Notes: a model not told the origin generated them from the letters alone. Positions 3,686 through 21,196 are shown, counted from the stretch's first letter. The stretch is 24,552 nt of DNA from a virus (UHGV-1720524); one strand, 5' to 3'. Numbers and translations: made by a program.

Positions 3686-4093
3686 TCACTCTCCTTTGAT
3701 GCGAATGCCAGTAGCGCGGATTGCATCGATGACTTCAGAAACTTTGTATGCCATTACCGTTTGGTAATCATCGTGAAAATCTGTTCGATGAAGCATGCTG
3801 CTACGTTCCGGGAGCAGTATTTCCCGCGCTTCCAGTTCTGCAATGCGCTTTTTTGCTGCTTCCAGTTCATCCAGTAATTCCAGCACGGTAGCCGGATTAG
3901 CCTTGGCAACAAAATCCCGGACTGGCTTACAATCAATCTCCGCAATGGGTTGATACGATGTGTAGCCATGCTGTCTTGTATAACTACCGTGACGAATAAC
4001 GAAAAAATCACCATTTATTTTTTTAGCCTGCCACTTATCTTCACCGGCTTTCTCTGCCGCTTCACGCAGTGCCTGAGAGTTAATTTCGCTCAC
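3686..4093 (-). CDS. Ea22-like protein (135 aa)
   Basis: Contains ANPATVLELLDELEAAKKRIAELE, a motif shared with the ORF at 12502-12915 and with lambda Ea22-type proteins as recalled. Confidence 0.55.
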   Translation of the reverse strand: MSEINSQALREAAEKAGEDKWQAKKINGDFFVIRHGSYTRQHGYTSYQPIAEIDCKPVRDFVAKANPATVLELLDELEAAKKRIAELEAREILLPERSSMLHRTDFHDDYQTVMAYKVSEVIDAIRATGIRIKGE

Positions 4094-4409: not shown

Positions 4410-4625
4410 TCATCGTTCCTTAAAGACGCCGTTTAACATGCCGATTGCCAGGCTTAAATGAGTCGGTGTGAATCCCATCAGCGTTACCGTTTCGCGGTGC
4501 TTCTTCAGTACGCTACGGCAAATGTCATCGACGTTTTTATCCGGAAACTGCTGTCTGGCTTTTTTGATTTCAGAATTAGCCTGACGGGCAATGCTGCGAA
4601 GGGCGTTTTCCTGCTGAGGTGTCAT
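4410..4625 (-). CDS. Hypothetical protein (71 aa from MTPQQENALRS; track start at 4691 is an alternative)
   Basis: ORF in the early-left operon; ATGA overlap with an upstream mini-ORF suggests the 4625 start. Confidence 0.4.
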   Translation of the reverse strand: MTPQQENALRSIARQANSEIKKARQQFPDKNVDDICRSVLKKHRETVTLMGFTPTHLSLAIGMLNGVFKER

Positions 4626-4705
4626 TGAACAAGTCCCATGTCGGCAAGCATAAGCACACAGAATATGAAGCCCGCTGCCAGAAAAATGCATTCAGTGGTT
4701 GTCAT
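4622..4705 (-). CDS. Candidate small hydrophobic peptide (27 aa, [27 protein letters not shown])
   Basis: Hand-translated mini-ORF whose ATG overlaps the stop of the 117-aa gene and whose TGA overlaps the next ATG (two ATGA couplings); single predicted transmembrane helix. Confidence 0.25.
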   Translation of the reverse strand: MTTTECIFLAAGFIFCVLMLADMGLVQ

Positions 4706-5726: not shown

Positions 5727-6508
5727 GCTGCCACCTTCTGCTCAGTGGCTTTCTGTTTCAGGAATCCAAGAGCTTTCACTGCTTCGGCCTGTGTCAGTTC
5801 TGACGATGCGCGAATGTCGCGGCGAAATATCTGGGAACAGAGCGGCAATAAGTCGTCATCCCATGTTTTATCCAGGGCGATCAGCAGAGTGTTAATCTCC
5901 TGCATGGTTTCATCGTTAACCGGAGTGATGTCGCGTTCTGGCTGACGTTCTGCAGTGTATGCAGTATTTTCGACAATGCGCTCGGCTTCATCCTTGTCAT
6001 AGATACCAGCAAATCCGAAGGCCAGACGGGCACACTGAATCATGGCTTTATGCCGTAACATCCGTTTGGGATGCGACTGCCACGGCCCCGTGATTTCTCT
6101 GCCTTCGCGAGTTTTGAATGGTTCGCGGCGGCATTCATCCATCCATTCGGTAACGCAGATCGGATGATTACGGTCCTTGCGGTAAATCCGGCATGTACAT
6201 GATTCATTGTCCTGCTCAAAGTCCATGCCATCAAACTGCTGGTTTTCATTGATGATGCGGGACCAGCCATCAACGCCCACCACCGGAACGATGCCGTTCT
6301 GCTTATCAGGGAAGGCGTAAATTTCTTTCGTCCACGGATTAAGGCCGTACTGGTTGGCGACGATCAACAATGCGATGAACTGCGCATCGCTGGCATCACC
6401 TTTAAATGCCGTCTGACGAAGAGTGGTGATCAGTTCCTGTGGGTCGACAGAATCCATGCCGACACGTTCAGCCAGCTTCCCAGCCAGCGTTGCGAGTGCA
6501 GTACTCAT
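5723..6508 (-). CDS. bet: Single-strand annealing protein Bet (Red-beta), 261 aa
   Basis: [66 protein letters not shown]... matches lambda Bet; overlaps the exo start as in lambda. Confidence 0.95.
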
Positions 6509-7176: not shown

Positions 7177-7369
7177 AACTAAGCCGCCTCGTTGAAGCGA
7201 CTAAGGTATGAAATGTTGAGTTGATTTCAGCTGGTCACACCGACGTTCACGCGTCCGTTTCATCCCTCGCACTACCCGAAGCCTGCTGAAATTCAAGCTG
7301 CGGATCTAAGCGGTCATCGCAACGGTGAAACAGGTGGTTACCGTATCGTTGTGTCGTTGCGATGAATTT

Positions 7370-7436
7370 ATTTAAAACTATAGTTGTTTTATCGTCAACA
7401 ACAAAAGTTGTTTTATCGGTTGTTTTAAATATAACT
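7370..7436 (-). promoter_or_regulatory. pL promoter with OL operator repeats
   Basis: On the minus strand GTTGTTGACGATAAAACAACTATAGTTTTAAAT (-35 TTGACG, 17-nt spacer, -10 TTAAAT) is nearly identical to the pR module at 9168-9200; surrounded by AACAAC-N4-GTTGTT dyads. Confidence 0.6.
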
Positions 7437-7536
7437 GGTTGTATTTAGGATGGATTTATTTTGTGACTTGCATCGCATAGCGATAACTGAAGTGAGGTCG
7501 TGGTGGTTTTTTGAACGGTGTGTGATGAGGGGAGGG

Positions 7537-7569
7537 CAAAATAAAACCCGGCACGGTGGCCGGGTTTAG
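7537..7569 (-). terminator. Intrinsic terminator ending the immunity-region transcript (tIMM-like)
   Basis: On the minus strand CCCGGC-CACCGT-GCCGGG stem-loop followed by TTTTATTTT, about 75 bp past the stop of the 147-aa gene. Confidence 0.65.
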
Positions 7570-7641
7570 ATGATTGGTTAAGAGCGAGGGTAATGGGGAA
7601 TGAAAAATCGCTTTACCTAATGCAAGGGTGCGAGCATTTTC

Positions 7642-8085
7642 TTAAGCACTAAAGAAAAAGTACATTGATAGCTTATAAAGTCCTGTTCCTGCAGCGATGA
7701 TTGCTGGAACACCAAGCAATACCGCAAGCTTTGCGTCTGAAATCTTTCTATCGACAGCATCACTTGATGGCTTGTTTGTTAAGGATTCTTTTATAGAGTC
7801 CAGACGTGCAAGAATAGTTATCATATTTTTGTCGATAGCTTTAACGTCTGTTTTAAGTTCATCAACGTCTCGTTTGATATGAGCAACATCGGACTCCAGT
7901 TTTGCAACTTTTTCAGGCATGTTATCACTCCCAGACCCACTGCTACCACTTGATTGTAGCATGTCCCATCTTTTTCCAGATATACCTGCTAGCTGGGAAG
8001 ACGCACTGGAGTGCAAACAAAATGATTTTGCCGCCTTTGCAATTTTATCATTTAGGTTTGGAGCTTCGTAATAATCGTGTTTCAT
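7642..8085 (-). CDS. Coiled-coil protein with C-terminal transmembrane helix (147 aa; XhlA-like architecture), distal gene of the repressor-linked moron
   Basis: Long ORF in very AT-rich DNA; heptad-like KLESDVAHIKRDVDELKTDVKAIDKNMITILARLDSIKESL followed by hydrophobic LAVLLGVPAIIAAGTGLYKL; occupies the rexB-equivalent position. Confidence 0.55.
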   Translation of the reverse strand: MKHDYYEAPNLNDKIAKAAKSFCLHSSASSQLAGISGKRWDMLQSSGSSGSGSDNMPEKVAKLESDVAHIKRDVDELKTDVKAIDKNMITILARLDSIKESLTNKPSSDAVDRKISDAKLAVLLGVPAIIAAGTGLYKLSMYFFFSA

Positions 8086-8097
8086 AATTAATTACGA

Positions 8098-8361
8098 TTA
8101 GTTTGTTTTAGCTTTGTCATGCTGGTCGCGAATGAAGTCAGCCAATTTAAGCATCAATTCTTCGGGCATTCTAATGGTTGCAATGTTGTACTTTATGTTC
8201 TCAACATCGTCACTTTCATCAACAGGCCATTCAGTTACATTATGAAAAAAAGAAATTGAACCTAGGCGCTGAGAGCCGTCACCAAACGAAGAGTAGCCAA
8301 ACGCGTCGGCGTATGCATCGACACAGTTATTTGATTTTTTAACAAGTGTTTTATTACTCAT
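8098..8361 (-). CDS. Small protein (87 aa) with C-terminal ribbon-helix-helix-like segment, proximal gene of the repressor-linked moron
   Basis: ORF with GGAAAGG Shine-Dalgarno, 82 bp downstream of the repressor stop; YNIATIRMPEELMLKLADFIRDQ resembles a beta-strand/helix RHH motif; AT-rich. Confidence 0.5.
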   Translation of the reverse strand: MSNKTLVKKSNNCVDAYADAFGYSSFGDGSQRLGSISFFHNVTEWPVDESDDVENIKYNIATIRMPEELMLKLADFIRDQHDKAKTN

Positions 8362-8443
8362 TTTTTGCCTTTCCCGTAATGTTATTTTTTATAAGGTATT
8401 TTCTTCAGCGTATTACCCAAAAGCCTCATCAACACGCGGCTGA

Positions 8444-9133
8444 TTATCCGTGTTTTCTGTACGTCTGCGGCATGCTCCCAATAACCTTACCGAATATGAA
8501 TACCCGGTTCATCTCGTCTTTCTCGATCGGGTCCCACGGTGAGTAGCTCTTGTTATCAGAGATAACCAGTAGCTTATCCTTCATCATTTGCAGGCGCTTT
8601 ACATGGGCGGTGTCGTCATACAGAAACGCATAGATGCCATCACCGTCGAAAGATTTAACAGTGATATCAACGAACAGCAGGTCACCTGGTTCGATCGTCC
8701 CTGACATGCTGTCACCTCGCACGTTAATGATGCGGATATTTTCCGCCTTCCTGCCATCGAACATGTGACGAGCATCGTCAAACGAGTACTCAACCGAGCG
8801 TAGAACTTCTACAAACTCACGGTTGATTACACCTGGCCCGGCACTGACTTCTATATCAAGAACGTCAATTTTGAAGTATTTGGAATGGCTGACAGTTGAT
8901 TGTATTGGTTGCACTGTACTGTCTGACATATTTCCAACGCCAGAAGATAACCATTCTGCGCGTACACCCAAAGCGTTCGCGATCTCCACGATTTTAGTTG
9001 TTTGGTTAGCTTTCCCTGTTTCGATTTTCTGAATAGCAGCCTGGCTAACCCCGACCAAATCCCCAAGCGCCTTTTGTGTAAGGCCTCGCGCTAATCTGGC
9101 TTCTTTAAGTCTTTCTGAGAGTGTTGTTTTCAT
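8444..9133 (-). CDS. CI-type prophage repressor (N-terminal HTH, C-terminal LexA/S24-like autopeptidase domain), 229 aa
   Basis: N-terminal LTQKALGDLVGVSQAAIQKIETGK (HTH_XRE-like); C-terminal NVRGDSMSGTIEPGDLLFVD...VKRL matches the S24 Ser/Lys dyad context; divergent from a Cro-like gene across an operator region. Confidence 0.85.
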   Translation of the reverse strand: MKTTLSERLKEARLARGLTQKALGDLVGVSQAAIQKIETGKANQTTKIVEIANALGVRAEWLSSGVGNMSDSTVQPIQSTVSHSKYFKIDVLDIEVSAGPGVINREFVEVLRSVEYSFDDARHMFDGRKAENIRIINVRGDSMSGTIEPGDLLFVDITVKSFDGDGIYAFLYDDTAHVKRLQMMKDKLLVISDNKSYSPWDPIEKDEMNRVFIFGKVIGSMPQTYRKHG

Positions 9134-9139
9134 AGATCA

Positions 9140-9210
9140 AATGTACAACCAAGGTTTTATTTCATCAAACGAAAATGGTTGTTGACTAAAAACAACCATA
9201 GTTTTAATCT
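9140..9210 (+). promoter_or_regulatory. OR operators with pR (and divergent pRM) region
   Basis: TTGACT at 9172-9177, 17-nt spacer, TAATCT at 9195-9200; 9-bp inverted repeat ATGGTTGTT / AACAACCAT overlapping the promoter; sits between the divergent repressor and cro-like genes. Confidence 0.6.
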
Positions 9211-12278: not shown

Positions 12279-12505
12279 GCAACATCGACAAACCAATGAC
12301 AAACCGTGAACTGGTGGATGCCGCCATTGAATTGGCCGGAGAGTTTTATGCGATGCAGGGCTATTCGCATCGTCCTGGCTTCAAGTATTGGCAATCTCCG
12401 CACCCGCATGAGCGCCTGTGCTTTGAAATGGCTTGCGTGGCATTCGAAACCATTCGCGGCTCAGATGTAATGGACGCCGTATCTGAGTTGGAGGATGAAG
12501 AATGA
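12275..12505 (+). CDS. Hypothetical protein (76 aa), starts MSNIDK
   Basis: Translationally coupled ORF; first 19 nt (ATGAGCAACATCGACAAAC) identical to the start of the next gene. Confidence 0.5.
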   Translation: MSNIDKPMTNRELVDAAIELAGEFYAMQGYSHRPGFKYWQSPHPHERLCFEMACVAFETIRGSDVMDAVSELEDEE

Positions 12506-12915
12506 GCAACATCGACAAACGCGCATTACGTGAAATCGCTGAGGCAGCAGTTGGTGCGCATGAGCGCCTTAGTGTTATGCCGCCTGATGACATTTTCGAT
12601 ATCTCACTGGCAGAAGGAACTCAGCTTGATGCAGATATCACTGCCTTGAACGCGCTGAACTCCGCAGCCAACCCAGCCACAGTGCTGGCGCTGCTGGATG
12701 AGCTGGAAGCCAAAGACCAGAGGATTGCTGTGCTGACCGAATCGCTCAAGCAGACGGTTTCAGGATACAAATCCTGCCTGCGTACCGGACATGAGCGCAT
12801 TCTTGACCTTGGCGGTGACTGTGACGCGCCAGAAGTGATGATTGCAGGCAATCCTGACATTCAGCAGGCGCAGAAGCTGATCGCCGCCGCATCCGGTAAA
12901 GGAGAGGCATCATGA
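12502..12915 (+). CDS. Ea22-like protein (137 aa), paralog of 3686-4093
   Basis: Shares ANPATVLALLDELEAKDQRIA with the minus-strand Ea22-like ORF. Confidence 0.55.
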   Translation: MSNIDKRALREIAEAAVGAHERLSVMPPDDIFDISLAEGTQLDADITALNALNSAANPATVLALLDELEAKDQRIAVLTESLKQTVSGYKSCLRTGHERILDLGGDCDAPEVMIAGNPDIQQAQKLIAAASGKGEAS

Positions 12916-16772: not shown

Positions 16773-17855
16773 TTAGAACTGGTAAACCATACCTACAGCA
16801 ACGATATCATCGGTAGCAACGCCAGATGCTTTCGTGAAATCGCTCTTATCAATCAGGTTGATTTTGTAGTCAACAAAAGTGGACATATTTTTGTTGAAGT
16901 AATAGGTTGCACCTACATCAACATATTCAACCAGGTCCTGATCACCCCAAACACCCAAGTCTTTTCCTTTAGAATGCAGGTAAGCAACGGATGGACGCAG
17001 GCCGAAGTCGAACTGATATTGTGCAACAGCTTCGAAGTTTTGTGCTTTGTTGGCAATATGGTTATTACCAAAAACAGTCATGTTCTGGGTTTCAGAATAG
17101 GTGGTGGCCAGATAGATGTTGTTCGCATCATATTTCAGACCAGCTGCCCATACTTCAGCATTTTGACCAGAAGCATTCAGACCGTTGTTACCGTAGATAA
17201 CCTGATTATTAGTGCGATCAGATTTAGCATAGGTTGCACCCACGCCGAATCCTTCATACTCATAAGTAGTTGAGAAACCGAAACCATCGCCATTAGCTTC
17301 AGTTACTTCATTTCGGTCATTTTTGCCCTGATACTGAGCTGCAAAGTTCAGGCCATCAACCAGACCAAAGAAGTCGTTGTTACGATAAGTTGCAACACCT
17401 GTGGTGCGACCAGTCATGAATACATCTGTTTGGGTCCAGGTATCGCCACCGAATTCTGGCAGAACGTCAGTCCACGCACCGATGTCGTATGCTACACCGT
17501 AGTTACGGCCGTAATCGATTGAGCCGTAGTCACCGAATTTCAGGCCTGCAAATGCAAGACGGGTTTTGTCTTTGGAGGAACCTTGAGATTCAGCGCGGTT
17601 GCCTTTGAATTCATATTCCCACTGACCGAAACCAGTCAGTTGATCGTTGATTTGGGTTTCACCTTTGAAGCCAAGACGGGCATAAGTAGTATCACCATCA
17701 TCTGCATCATTAGAGGAGAAGTAGTGCTTAGCATTAACTTTCCCGTACAGATCCAGCTTGTTACTGTCTTTATTATAAATTTCAGCTGCCTGAGCAGACA
17801 TCGCCATCAGTACTGATGCAGCTACAGCAGAAATTGCCACTGTTAATTTTTTCAT
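16773..17855 (-). CDS. nmpC: Outer-membrane general porin (OmpC/OmpF family; phage-borne NmpC/Lc type), 360 aa, apparently intact
   Basis: Signal peptide [30 protein letters not shown]...LDLYGK start, and C-terminal ...VAVGMVYQF typical of enterobacterial porins; located between Q and the holin on the opposite strand as in DLP12/PA-2. Confidence 0.9.
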
Positions 17856-19601: not shown

Positions 19602-19738
19602 AATCTTAACTACAATATGATTCATTTTGATGATTGTTTCATAAGGAACAGTGAAGTAAGATCTAAGAGGAGTTAAATTTTATACAGTATAATCATAATA
19701 TTGCAGCAAGGTGGTTATAATTGAAAGAATATTTAGAT

Positions 19739-21196
19739 ATGAATACATCTCATGTAAGAGTTGTTACTCATATGTGTGGGTTCCTGGTTTGGCTCTATAG
19801 TCTTTCAATGTTGCCACCAATGGTTGTAGCATTGTTTTATAAAGAAAAAAGCCTGTTCGTTTTCTTTATAACTTTCGTTATATTTTTTTGCATTGGTGGC
19901 GGAGCGTGGTATACAACTAAGAAATCTGGCATTCAATTACGTACCCGTGATGGGTTTATTATAATTGTAATGTTTTGGATTTTGTTTTCTGTTATTAGTG
20001 CATTCCCTTTATGGATTGACTCAGAACTTAATTTAACGTTCATTGATGCTCTGTTTGAAGGGGTTTCTGGAATAACAACAACAGGAGCAACTGTAATTGA
20101 TGATGTTAGTTCATTACCTCGGGCATATTTGTACTATCGGTCACAGTTAAATTTTATAGGTGGTTTAGGAGTTATTGTTCTGGCGGTTGCTGTATTGCCA
20201 TTATTGGGTATTGGTGGTGCAAAGCTTTATCAGTCAGAAATGCCGGGGCCATTTAAGGATGACAAACTCACTCCCCGCCTGGCCGATACGTCACGGACAC
20301 TGTGGATAACTTATTCTTTATTAGGTATTGCTTGTATTGTCTGTTATAGACTTGCAGGAATGCCTTTGTTTGATGCTATTTGTCACGGGATTTCCACAGT
20401 TTCGCTTGGTGGTTTCTCAACTCATAGCGAGAGTATCGGATATTTTAATAACTATTTGGTTGAGCTGGTGGCTGGTTCTTTTTCCCTGCTATCGGCTTTC
20501 AACTTCACTCTTTGGTATATTGTTATTAGCAGGAAAACGATAAAACCTTTAATCAGAGATATTGAACTTCGTTTCTTTCTGTTAATAGCCTTAGGGGTGA
20601 TCATTGTTACCTCTTTCCAGGTCTGGCATATAGGTATGTATGACTTGCATGGAAGTTTTATTCATTCGTTTTTTCTTGCCAGCTCCATGCTCACTGATAA
20701 TGGTTTAGCTACGCAGGATTATGCAAGTTGGCCCACGCACACGATAGTGTTTTTGCTGTTGTCAAGTTTCTTTGGGGGATGTATAGGTTCAACTTGTGGT
20801 GGAATTAAGTCACTTCGATTTCTTATACTTTTCAAACAAAGCAAACACGAGATAAATCAGCTTTCTCATCCCAGAGCGTTGTTGAGTGTAAATGTAGGAG
20901 GGAAGATAGTTACAGATCGTGTAATGAGGTCTGTATGGAGTTTCTTTTTTCTTTATACTCTCTTCACGGTGTTTTTTATACTGGTGTTAAATGGTATGGG
21001 ATATGATTTTCTTACATCATTTGCAACAGTGGCTGCATGTATTAATAATATGGGATTAGGTTTTGGGGCTACTGCATCGTCATTCGGAGTGCTTAATGAC
21101 ATTGCAAAATGTTTAATGTGCATAGCTATGATTCTTGGTCGCCTTGAAATTTATCCTGTTATTATATTGTTTTCAGGTTTTTTTTGGCGCTCCTAA
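19739..21196 (+). CDS. trkG: TrkG/TrkH-family K+ uptake membrane protein (485 aa from MNTSHVRVV), AT-rich moron
   Basis: Polytopic membrane protein matching Rac-prophage TrkG as recalled; low GC; preceded by an AT-rich region with TATAAT-like boxes. The track ORF starts at an upstream TTG. Confidence 0.88.
   Translation: MNTSHVRVVTHMCGFLVWLYSLSMLPPMVVALFYKEKSLFVFFITFVIFFCIGGGAWYTTKKSGIQLRTRDGFIIIVMFWILFSVISAFPLWIDSELNLTFIDALFEGVSGITTTGATVIDDVSSLPRAYLYYRSQLNFIGGLGVIVLAVAVLPLLGIGGAKLYQSEMPGPFKDDKLTPRLADTSRTLWITYSLLGIACIVCYRLAGMPLFDAICHGISTVSLGGFSTHSESIGYFNNYLVELVAGSFSLLSAFNFTLWYIVISRKTIKPLIRDIELRFFLLIALGVIIVTSFQVWHIGMYDLHGSFIHSFFLASSMLTDNGLATQDYASWPTHTIVFLLLSSFFGGCIGSTCGGIKSLRFLILFKQSKHEINQLSHPRALLSVNVGGKIVTDRVMRSVWSFFFLYTLFTVFFILVLNGMGYDFLTSFATVAACINNMGLGFGATASSFGVLNDIAKCLMCIAMILGRLEIYPVIILFSGFFWRS

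Follow-up and report, generated by a model that had tools for sequence, protein, structure and literature searches.

The stretch of DNA analysed here (the window) comprises 24,552 nucleotides (nt) of the virus UHGV-1720524 and is a lambda-like Escherichia coli prophage. Directly downstream of its cI-type repressor gene, on the same strand, lie two small genes, which we call A and B and which are the subject of this work. In the original prediction, made from the sequence alone, the pair was described as an AT-rich module in the position of lambda rexA/rexB and was proposed to be a defence or exclusion system expressed in the lysogen. The two minus-strand open reading frames (ORFs) named there were found, and the locus has the following features (protein lengths in amino acids, aa):

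8444..9133, minus strand: cI-type repressor, 229 aa, Pfam HTH_3 and Peptidase_S24, with A-B directly downstream.
8362..8443, minus strand: spacer between cI and A, 82 nt (terminator scan), near-identical in a divergent allele, L010.
8098..8361, minus strand: gene A, 87 aa, soluble acidic protein, phrog_4231 (ORF call, PHROG match, model).
7642..8085, minus strand: gene B, long form, 147 aa, phrog_3556 (ORF call, PHROG match).
7534..7567, minus strand: intrinsic terminator closing the cI-A-B unit, a 9-bp GC-rich stem and a U tract.
7373..7418, no strand assigned: OL-like operator copies, at 7373-7391 and 7400-7418 (palindrome scan).
9175..9206, no strand assigned: OR-like operator copies between cI and cro (palindrome scan).

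A and B are real genes under purifying selection. Their divergence was measured against L010, a second E. coli allele, whose repressor is identical to that of the window in amino acid sequence (nonsynonymous divergence, dN, 0; synonymous divergence, dS, 0.18). Between the two alleles gene A has a dS of 1.7 and a dN/dS of 0.08, within the overall range for A of 0.05-0.10, and the dN/dS of the conserved core of B is 0.125; residues 1-55 of B, with 0.46, are weakly constrained. The divergent patch extends from the start of A to about codon 108 of B, and is bordered by near-identical parts, the spacer on one side and the B tail anchor, the 3' end of the gene and the terminator on the other.

The arrangement of the locus suggests that A and B are expressed together with the repressor. 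Between cI and A, in a conserved spacer of 82 nt, the scan detected neither a terminator-like site on the minus strand nor a consensus promoter, and transcription of A and B by read-through from the cI promoters is a simpler reading than transcription from a promoter of their own. Downstream of B the unit is closed by a strong terminator, whose 9-bp stem (7544-7567, minus strand) is followed by UUUUAUUUU; the hairpin folds with -15.1 kcal/mol (z -3.56), none of 200 shuffled sequences folding as well, and phages with different cargo in this slot have the same terminator. An operator-like palindrome of 19 nt, TAAAACAACYATAGTTTTA, is confined in the window to 7373-7391 and 9188-9206, where 0.01 would be expected by chance, and a related third copy lies at 7400-7418. 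Because operator copies flank it on both sides, the cI-A-B block is located between OL-like and OR-like sites. (The simple operator pattern CAAC-N-GTTG was not above chance, and the 19-mer was used instead.) The GC content of the A-B module is 0.40, as compared to 0.50-0.52 in exo, bet, gam and kil and 0.47 in cI, and at third codon positions it is 0.31 in B and 0.39 in A versus 0.57-0.62 in bet and exo. The layout originally predicted, i.e. an AT-rich pair directly behind the repressor, followed by a terminator and enclosed by the two operator regions, is borne out by these data.

The association of the two genes is not peculiar to this prophage. In all nine A-family loci that were inspected the next gene is B-type and starts 0-12 nt downstream of A or overlaps it, and even where the sequence of B is very different, the follower is laid out like B, its low-complexity N-terminal part leading to a coiled coil and to an anchor at the C-terminus; in these nine loci the pairing is obligate. 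The module was found, mostly intact, in 205 of 5426 complete E. coli genomes (~4%). A profile search with A yielded 37 clusters, all from Enterobacterales. As a side observation, one E. coli protein (P0070, 134 aa) consists of the first ~58 residues of A fused in frame to the C-terminal coiled-coil/transmembrane (TM) part of a B of the type found in the Salmonella phage UPF_BP1; it is probably a deletion derivative of an A-B pair.

The A-B loci fall in three kinds of genomic context:

Context 1, after a cI-type repressor gene: E. coli (the window and L010).
Context 2, after mnt in P22-like phages and prophages: Salmonella phage UPF_BP1, E. coli E4, Serratia marcescens, Morganella, Pectobacterium.
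Context 3, opposite-strand insert in tail gene clusters: Raoultella, two Klebsiella species.

In the second context UPF_BP1, E. coli E4, Serratia and the Morganella locus L024 have an A whose start overlaps the mnt stop codon, and in Pectobacterium the start follows that stop by 2 nt; in L023, the second of the two Morganella loci, mnt and A are separated by a gene of 92 aa. Because mnt encodes a repressor expressed in lysogens, this overlap argues that the family is expressed in lysogens as well, and it is the best argument for such expression that the sequences offer. P22 itself has orf59a and sieA at the same position; the SieA locus is expressed by the prophage, and sieA is present in only a third of P22-like phages (PMC10883804). 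In the mnt contexts B is followed by a third small gene, whose product is membrane, signal-peptide or lipoprotein-like and varies from host to host; the gene is perhaps cargo in its own right, perhaps a third component of the module. The loci concerned are:

L001, ~4470-4660, minus strand.
L012, 4957-5262.
L023, 4254-4484.
L027, 4322-4786.

Copies of the B core were also seen in Pantoea, where those that stand alone adjoin an AraC-type gene (L003-L006, ~5995-6297; L005, 4481-4780), and one Pantoea genome has a B-core copy at a prophage edge together with a second, diverged coiled-coil/TM paralogue with the same first residues.

The sequence of B points to a tail-anchored, single-pass coiled-coil membrane protein. 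Its parts map to the window as follows:

7774..7920, minus strand: coiled coil, residues 56-104, seven heptads (heptad analysis, model).
7678..7734, minus strand: tail-anchor TM segment, residues 118-136 (19-residue Kyte-Doolittle hydropathy, KD19).
7928..7932, minus strand: Shine-Dalgarno-like GGGAG, 7 nt upstream of an internal in-frame ATG at codon 56.
7642..7920, minus strand: predicted short form of B, 92 aa from Met56, the conserved core of the family.

The seven heptads are unbroken, with 93% hydrophobic residues in the a and d positions, and residues 118-136, at the extreme C-terminus, form the sole TM-grade segment (KD19 maximum 1.8), which is near-invariant across the family. In the structural model a short helix (11-26) is followed by a disordered Ser/Gly-rich stretch up to residue 55, then by a long helix (56-103) and, after a break at a conserved KKPS motif, by a further helix (108-146). 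Since B has a tail anchor and no signal peptide, the bulk of the protein is expected to face the cytoplasm. Conservation in the family alignments is concentrated in residues 56-147, the N-terminal part varying both in sequence and in length. In an exhaustive profile search the complete core was present in only ~30 clusters, all of small proteins. The remainder were generic coiled-coil repeats, including long proteins with multi-stretch matches (900-1500 aa, e.g. YadA stalks), which we do not regard as relatives. The coiled coil and single C-terminal TM helix of the original prediction were thus confirmed. Its comparison with XhlA holds for the architecture and fails for family membership: B scores 14.1 bits with PF10779 against a gathering threshold of 34.7, only 2 of 23 relatives match at E<=0.01, and generic coiled-coil families outscore XhlA across the relatives of B. 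In Pfam and NCBIfam nothing significant was found for B, the matches being sub-threshold coiled-coil ones.

B is probably made as two isoforms, of 147 and 92 aa, as judged from the start signals. The long start lies 12 nt after the stop codon of A and is not preceded by a Shine-Dalgarno motif; the internal one has the GGGAG listed above. Nearly all relatives have a core that begins with Met, encoded by ATG in all 15 loci first examined, and in L010, where Val has taken its place, the codon is GTG, still usable as a start. Of 14 divergent B genes, 13 have a start codon where the coiled coil begins, with GGAG, GGAGG, AGGAGGT or a similar motif 4-14 nt upstream, and the internal start signal is found even in B types whose coiled coil can no longer be aligned to that of the window. 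Gene callers often report the short form alone in relatives. We rejected the short form as the sole product: the upstream frame is open for 31-76 codons in 14 of 14 relatives, the long-form starts overlap the stop of the preceding gene or fall within 0-17 nt of it in every relative, and the dN/dS of the region upstream of the core is 0.4-0.57, i.e. below 1, for which reasons the long form appears to be a real product.

A is a small, soluble, acidic and uncharacterised protein. Its AlphaFold2 model, built from an alignment of eight relatives, has a predicted local distance difference test score (pLDDT) of 78 and contains strands at 6-8, 20-26, 33-46 and 54-66 and a single helix at 67-86, which suggests a beta-meander with one C-terminal helix. 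The original prediction had seen a ribbon-helix-helix-like strand-helix segment at the C-terminus. The strand (54-66) and the helix (67-86) are there, but the strand is the last one of the meander, it is followed by a single helix and not by two, and the net charge of the protein is acidic, for which reasons an Arc/MetJ-type ribbon-helix-helix was rejected; no helix-turn-helix, ribbon-helix-helix or AbrB fold was found in A. Searches of Pfam and NCBIfam gave nothing significant for A, a PDB sequence search with the A profile gave nothing below E 0.3, and a fold search of BFVD gave nothing at E<=0.001, the best match (E 0.009, template modelling score 0.58) being nameless. The profile searches that had been suggested for both proteins led to PHROG families without assigned function and to no characterised match in Pfam, NCBIfam or PADLOC. 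No literature description of either family was found by locus tag, accession, PHROG identifier or topic.

A is not the only partner of B. The window-type B core was found downstream of four more small proteins without similarity to A, which makes at least five unrelated partners in all:

Partner of 93-95 aa, phrog_12039: Enterobacter, Rahnella and a metagenomic lambdoid prophage, the latter with the order cI, partner, B, N.
Partner of 119 aa, zinc-ribbon-like, phrog_4293: Serratia tail clusters.
Partner of 139 aa, phrog_5893: Phaseolibacter, after a cI-like gene.
Partner of 147 aa: Klebsiella aerogenes, after cI.

The 95-aa Enterobacter/Rahnella-type partner was considered as a possible homologue of A and is treated as unrelated (hhalign probability 0.25%). 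For the two partner types that were seen in more than one locus we could assess whether the N-terminal region of B recurs with the partner, and it does: the 93-95-aa partner is followed by a B of 173-175 aa in three loci, and the 119-aa partner by a B of 131 aa in two. The picture that these sequences suggest for the family as a whole is one in which the membrane module is conserved and both the N-terminal regions attached to it and the partners can be exchanged.

The place occupied by A and B is a clean cargo hot spot, with at least five states behind one identical repressor protein. The repressor gene was detected in 2209 of the 5426 complete E. coli genomes, in 1520 of them with at least 80% coverage, and across strains with the same or nearly the same repressor protein the slot is followed by the same kil-gam-bet genes. 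In one such locus (L033, 1305-2878) the slot contains a HipA-family kinase and a DUF3037 protein, which match the PADLOC candidate system PDC-M66; in another (L034, 1503-2919) it contains a 353-aa protein and an ASCH protein matching PDC-M11 (E 3e-133 and 7e-52); in a third (L035, about 2387-2981) it is empty. The phages Perceval (L031, 3573-5123) and PhiR68_2 (L030, 3566-5021) have the same slot and share the terminator with the window, their cargo being a 340-aa protein and a multi-pass membrane protein of 149-168 aa. Neither of these has a Pfam or PADLOC match, and the pair is apparently an uncharacterised one with a Rex-like layout. The comparative check proposed with the original prediction, whether the slot holds different cargo in related prophages, was therefore answered in the affirmative. 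By association, these occupants support the view that the slot collects anti-phage cargo. The A-B module shares several features with a moron in the sense of Hendrix: a GC content of 0.40 versus 0.50-0.52, a polymorphic slot and a terminator.

The remainder of the window fits a lambda-like prophage, and an immunity region near-identical to that of the window was found in an E. coli SE11 prophage adjoining tRNA-Arg and fimZ. The gene content includes:

Lambda-type integrase, Ea22-like genes, exo-bet-gam-kil, cI-type repressor, cro/YdaS and a YdaT-type gene.
Replication genes O and P, a porin gene, a TrkH-family gene and the small terminase subunit gene.

A general porin gene (16773-17855, minus strand) and the ORF of a TrkH-family cation transporter (19721-21196, plus strand, TTG start, 491 aa) lie in the late region and are further host-directed cargo of the same prophage. 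Ead/Ea22-like paralogues are found on opposite prophage arms (3686-4093, minus strand, and 12502-12915, plus strand), each followed by a ~265-aa protein without Pfam match, the two followers being mutually unrelated. At OL a pL-like promoter (TTGACG-17-TTAAAT, minus strand) can tentatively be read by eye; the scan did not call it. Just downstream of this putative promoter, in the leader, is a strong hairpin (7306-7365, minus strand; 11-bp outer stem, -20 kcal/mol, z -3.0, no U tract), which could be an antitermination or processing element. No N-like gene is present between pL and kil, and the Rfam search found no family in the window, this hairpin included. Inside the OL region there is also a plus-strand promoter-like site (TTGCGA-16-TATAGT, 7357-7384) that faces back to the 3' end of B; the region contains no more promoter-like sites than chance would produce.

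We think that A-B may be a phage-exclusion module of the inner membrane, expressed in the lysogen and similar to Rex in logic, not in ancestry. We give this reading a probability of roughly 45%, and the defence interpretation of the original prediction is, on the whole, partly supported. It is favoured by the placement behind cI without an intervening terminator, by the overlap with mnt, by the inserts in tail clusters and by the polymorphic slot, and further by the constant pairing of the two genes, the divergent patch between near-identical flanks, the exchange of partners, the conserved internal start signal and the clear anchor and heptads of B. The pair would be a mobile AT-rich accessory operon, expressed in the lysogen together with the repressor. 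B would be held in the inner membrane by its tail anchor, with its bulk in the cytoplasm, and would oligomerise through the seven-heptad coiled coil; the long isoform would carry the partner-specific N-terminal region, the short one would arise from the internal start. A would be the small soluble partner, most likely binding or controlling the long isoform. An infection signal might be sensed through A and the N-terminus of B and might cause the coiled-coil/TM assembly of B to disturb the inner membrane, with a Rex-like abortive or exclusion outcome.

Several points weigh against this reading. The functional argument is one of guilt by association, and coiled-coil tail-anchored proteins also serve roles other than defence. 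No report of any phenotype of A or B was found in the literature. The PADLOC v2.0.0 models gave no match for A, and for B the best one was a sub-significant coiled-coil match (E 0.0037). The overall pLDDT of the B model is low (59), although the secondary structure is nonetheless clear. Some of the Pantoea copies of the B core are standalone and lie in chromosomal contexts. Finally, in the three closest alleles the identity of A and that of the N-terminus of B do not track each other; allele-by-allele tracking is unsupported there, and for this reason we claim matching of partner and N-terminus at the family level only.

A more elaborate version of the exclusion reading seems rather doubtful to us. 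According to it, A-B would belong to a modular exclusion family, in which a dual-isoform tail-anchored effector has an exchangeable N-terminal adaptor matched to one of at least five unrelated small partners that act as sensors, and the short isoform co-assembles with the long one and determines how readily the system is triggered, much as in the holin/antiholin and SieB/Esc pairs. If true, this would be a defence architecture missing from current catalogues, distributed over three prophage cargo slots in Enterobacterales, including O26:H11 Shiga toxin-producing E. coli (STEC).

Among the explanations that differ from the one we prefer, the best surviving, which we still consider unlikely, is superinfection exclusion, in which B together with A blocks the ejection or tape-measure machinery of incoming phages without killing the cell. 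P22 SieA and HK97 gp15 interfere with this machinery. B is a membrane protein, in P22-like phages A-B occupies the sieA slot next to the genes of the ejection proteins, and the tail-cluster inserts are near tape-measure genes, all of which would fit such a role. However, the anchor of B is at the extreme C-terminus and there is no signal peptide, which would place nearly all of B and the whole of A in the cytoplasm, whereas known blockers expose their bulk to the membrane or the periplasm. Known entry blockers have neither a soluble partner nor a dual-start gene, and there is no similarity (BLASTP E 1.7) to SieA, an inner-membrane blocker of entry (PMC10883804).

It is rather improbable that the module is toxin-antitoxin-like or self-directed, i.e. 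that B is a membrane toxin or holin-like protein restrained by A or by its own short isoform, serving prophage retention or tuning the prophage's own induction and lysis. The tight coupling of a small upstream gene to the gene of a membrane protein, the two being 0-12 nt apart or overlapping, is reminiscent of such systems, and the dual-start layout recalls the holin/antiholin and SieB/Esc pairs. Self-directed activity on induction has also been reported for RexAB, in that RexA/RexB reportedly assist the lysogenic-to-lytic transition (bioRxiv 10.1101/2021.04.19.439022). On the other hand, A is acidic and lacks the DNA-binding fold typical of type II antitoxins and B matches no known toxin family, on which grounds a type II toxin-antitoxin system was rejected; moreover, the module is far from the lysis cassette, and the presence/absence polymorphism and the defence candidates in the slot fit anti-phage cargo better.

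We also hold it to be improbable that A-B brings about a lysogenic conversion unrelated to phages, with B as a tail-anchored coiled-coil protein that alters stress tolerance of the host or associates with the ribosome or the envelope. The E. coli proteins ElaB, YqjD and YgaM are tail-anchored, and the coiled coil and C-terminal anchor of B make a comparable layout; the standalone chromosomal copies in Pantoea, and the porin and TrkH-family transporter in the same prophage, would also be in line with this explanation. It is at odds with the absence of any match to DUF883 or another family, with the restriction of the A-B pair to prophage cargo slots of the kind in which exclusion genes are classically found, and with the mosaic allelic diversity and swapped partners, which are more typical of conflict systems. 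Lastly, that A and B are chance or decaying frames without function, as might be thought of two short, AT-rich ORFs of unannotated function, is already refuted by selection and conservation (dN/dS 0.05-0.125, 37 A and ~30 B clusters in Enterobacterales, pairing kept in 9/9 loci, 205/5426 E. coli genomes).

If A-B does exclude phages, it would be a compact two-gene system of 0.9 kb, absent from PADLOC v2.0.0, the sole catalogue tested, and carried by ~4% of the complete E. coli genomes, O26:H11 STEC among them, as well as by P22-like and other prophages of Enterobacterales. It would then be relevant to the prediction of phage-host range and to the choice of therapeutic phages, and could serve as a small model for a single-pass coiled-coil membrane protein acting as effector, and for the diversification of one effector by alternative starts and exchangeable partners. 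As an example of a clean cargo hot spot the locus is of interest whatever A-B may do.

It is useful to compare A-B with the known systems that it resembles. The position is that of lambda rexA/rexB, after cI, on the same strand, ahead of the immunity terminator and between OR and OL, and both units consist of a soluble and a membrane protein in a slot that houses exclusion genes. RexAB excludes e.g. T4 rII, with membrane depolarisation. The proteins are different: neither A nor B has a RexA or RexB Pfam match at E<=1, A is much smaller (87 aa versus ~279 aa for RexA), and B has one C-terminal anchor, a coiled coil and two apparent isoforms, in contrast to RexB, a four-pass membrane protein. 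The original prediction, which placed the pair where lambda has rexA/rexB and took it to be unrelated to RexAB in sequence, is supported on both counts: A and B have the orientation of cI, precede the first terminator and match neither Rex protein. A similar relationship exists with P22 SieA and orf59a, whose place between gene 16 and mnt is occupied, in P22-like phages, by relatives of A-B; this does not hold for the window itself. Both are transcribed with or after mnt, and in both the membrane protein is produced by the prophage, presumably so in the case of A-B. SieA differs in being a multi-pass inner-membrane protein that acts alone, and orf59a, like SieA, shows no similarity to our pair.

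With XhlA (PF10779) and the XhlA-like 'hemolysin' PHROGs B shares the layout of an N-terminal coiled coil and a C-terminal TM segment, as well as the size, the short form having ~90 aa, and weak profile matches were obtained to phrog_1193 (E 1.3e-4) and phrog_937 (E 1.3e-3). Unlike XhlA, B is extended at its N-terminus, has an upstream partner of its own and is not part of a lysis cassette; in all loci examined A-B was found in the immunity region, the mnt region or a tail cluster. The closest counterparts in position are PDC-M11, PDC-M66 and the Perceval/PhiR68_2 pair, which, like A-B, are two-gene units in the same slot behind an identical or near-identical cI, and whose proteins are unrelated to A and B.

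The predicted starts of B have parallels in other dual-start membrane genes, the S105/S107 holin-antiholin gene of lambda and SieB/Esc of P22, where one frame is likewise read from two starts; as in those systems, the full-length and the N-terminally shortened protein could regulate each other. A difference is that in B, where the isoforms are predicted from the sequence, the shortening amounts to ~55 residues and would remove the whole partner-specific region. A-B is new as a pair of families and familiar in kind, being prophage cargo in an exclusion-gene slot with a soluble and a membrane component; what is unusual about it is the predicted dual-start effector and the exchangeable partners.

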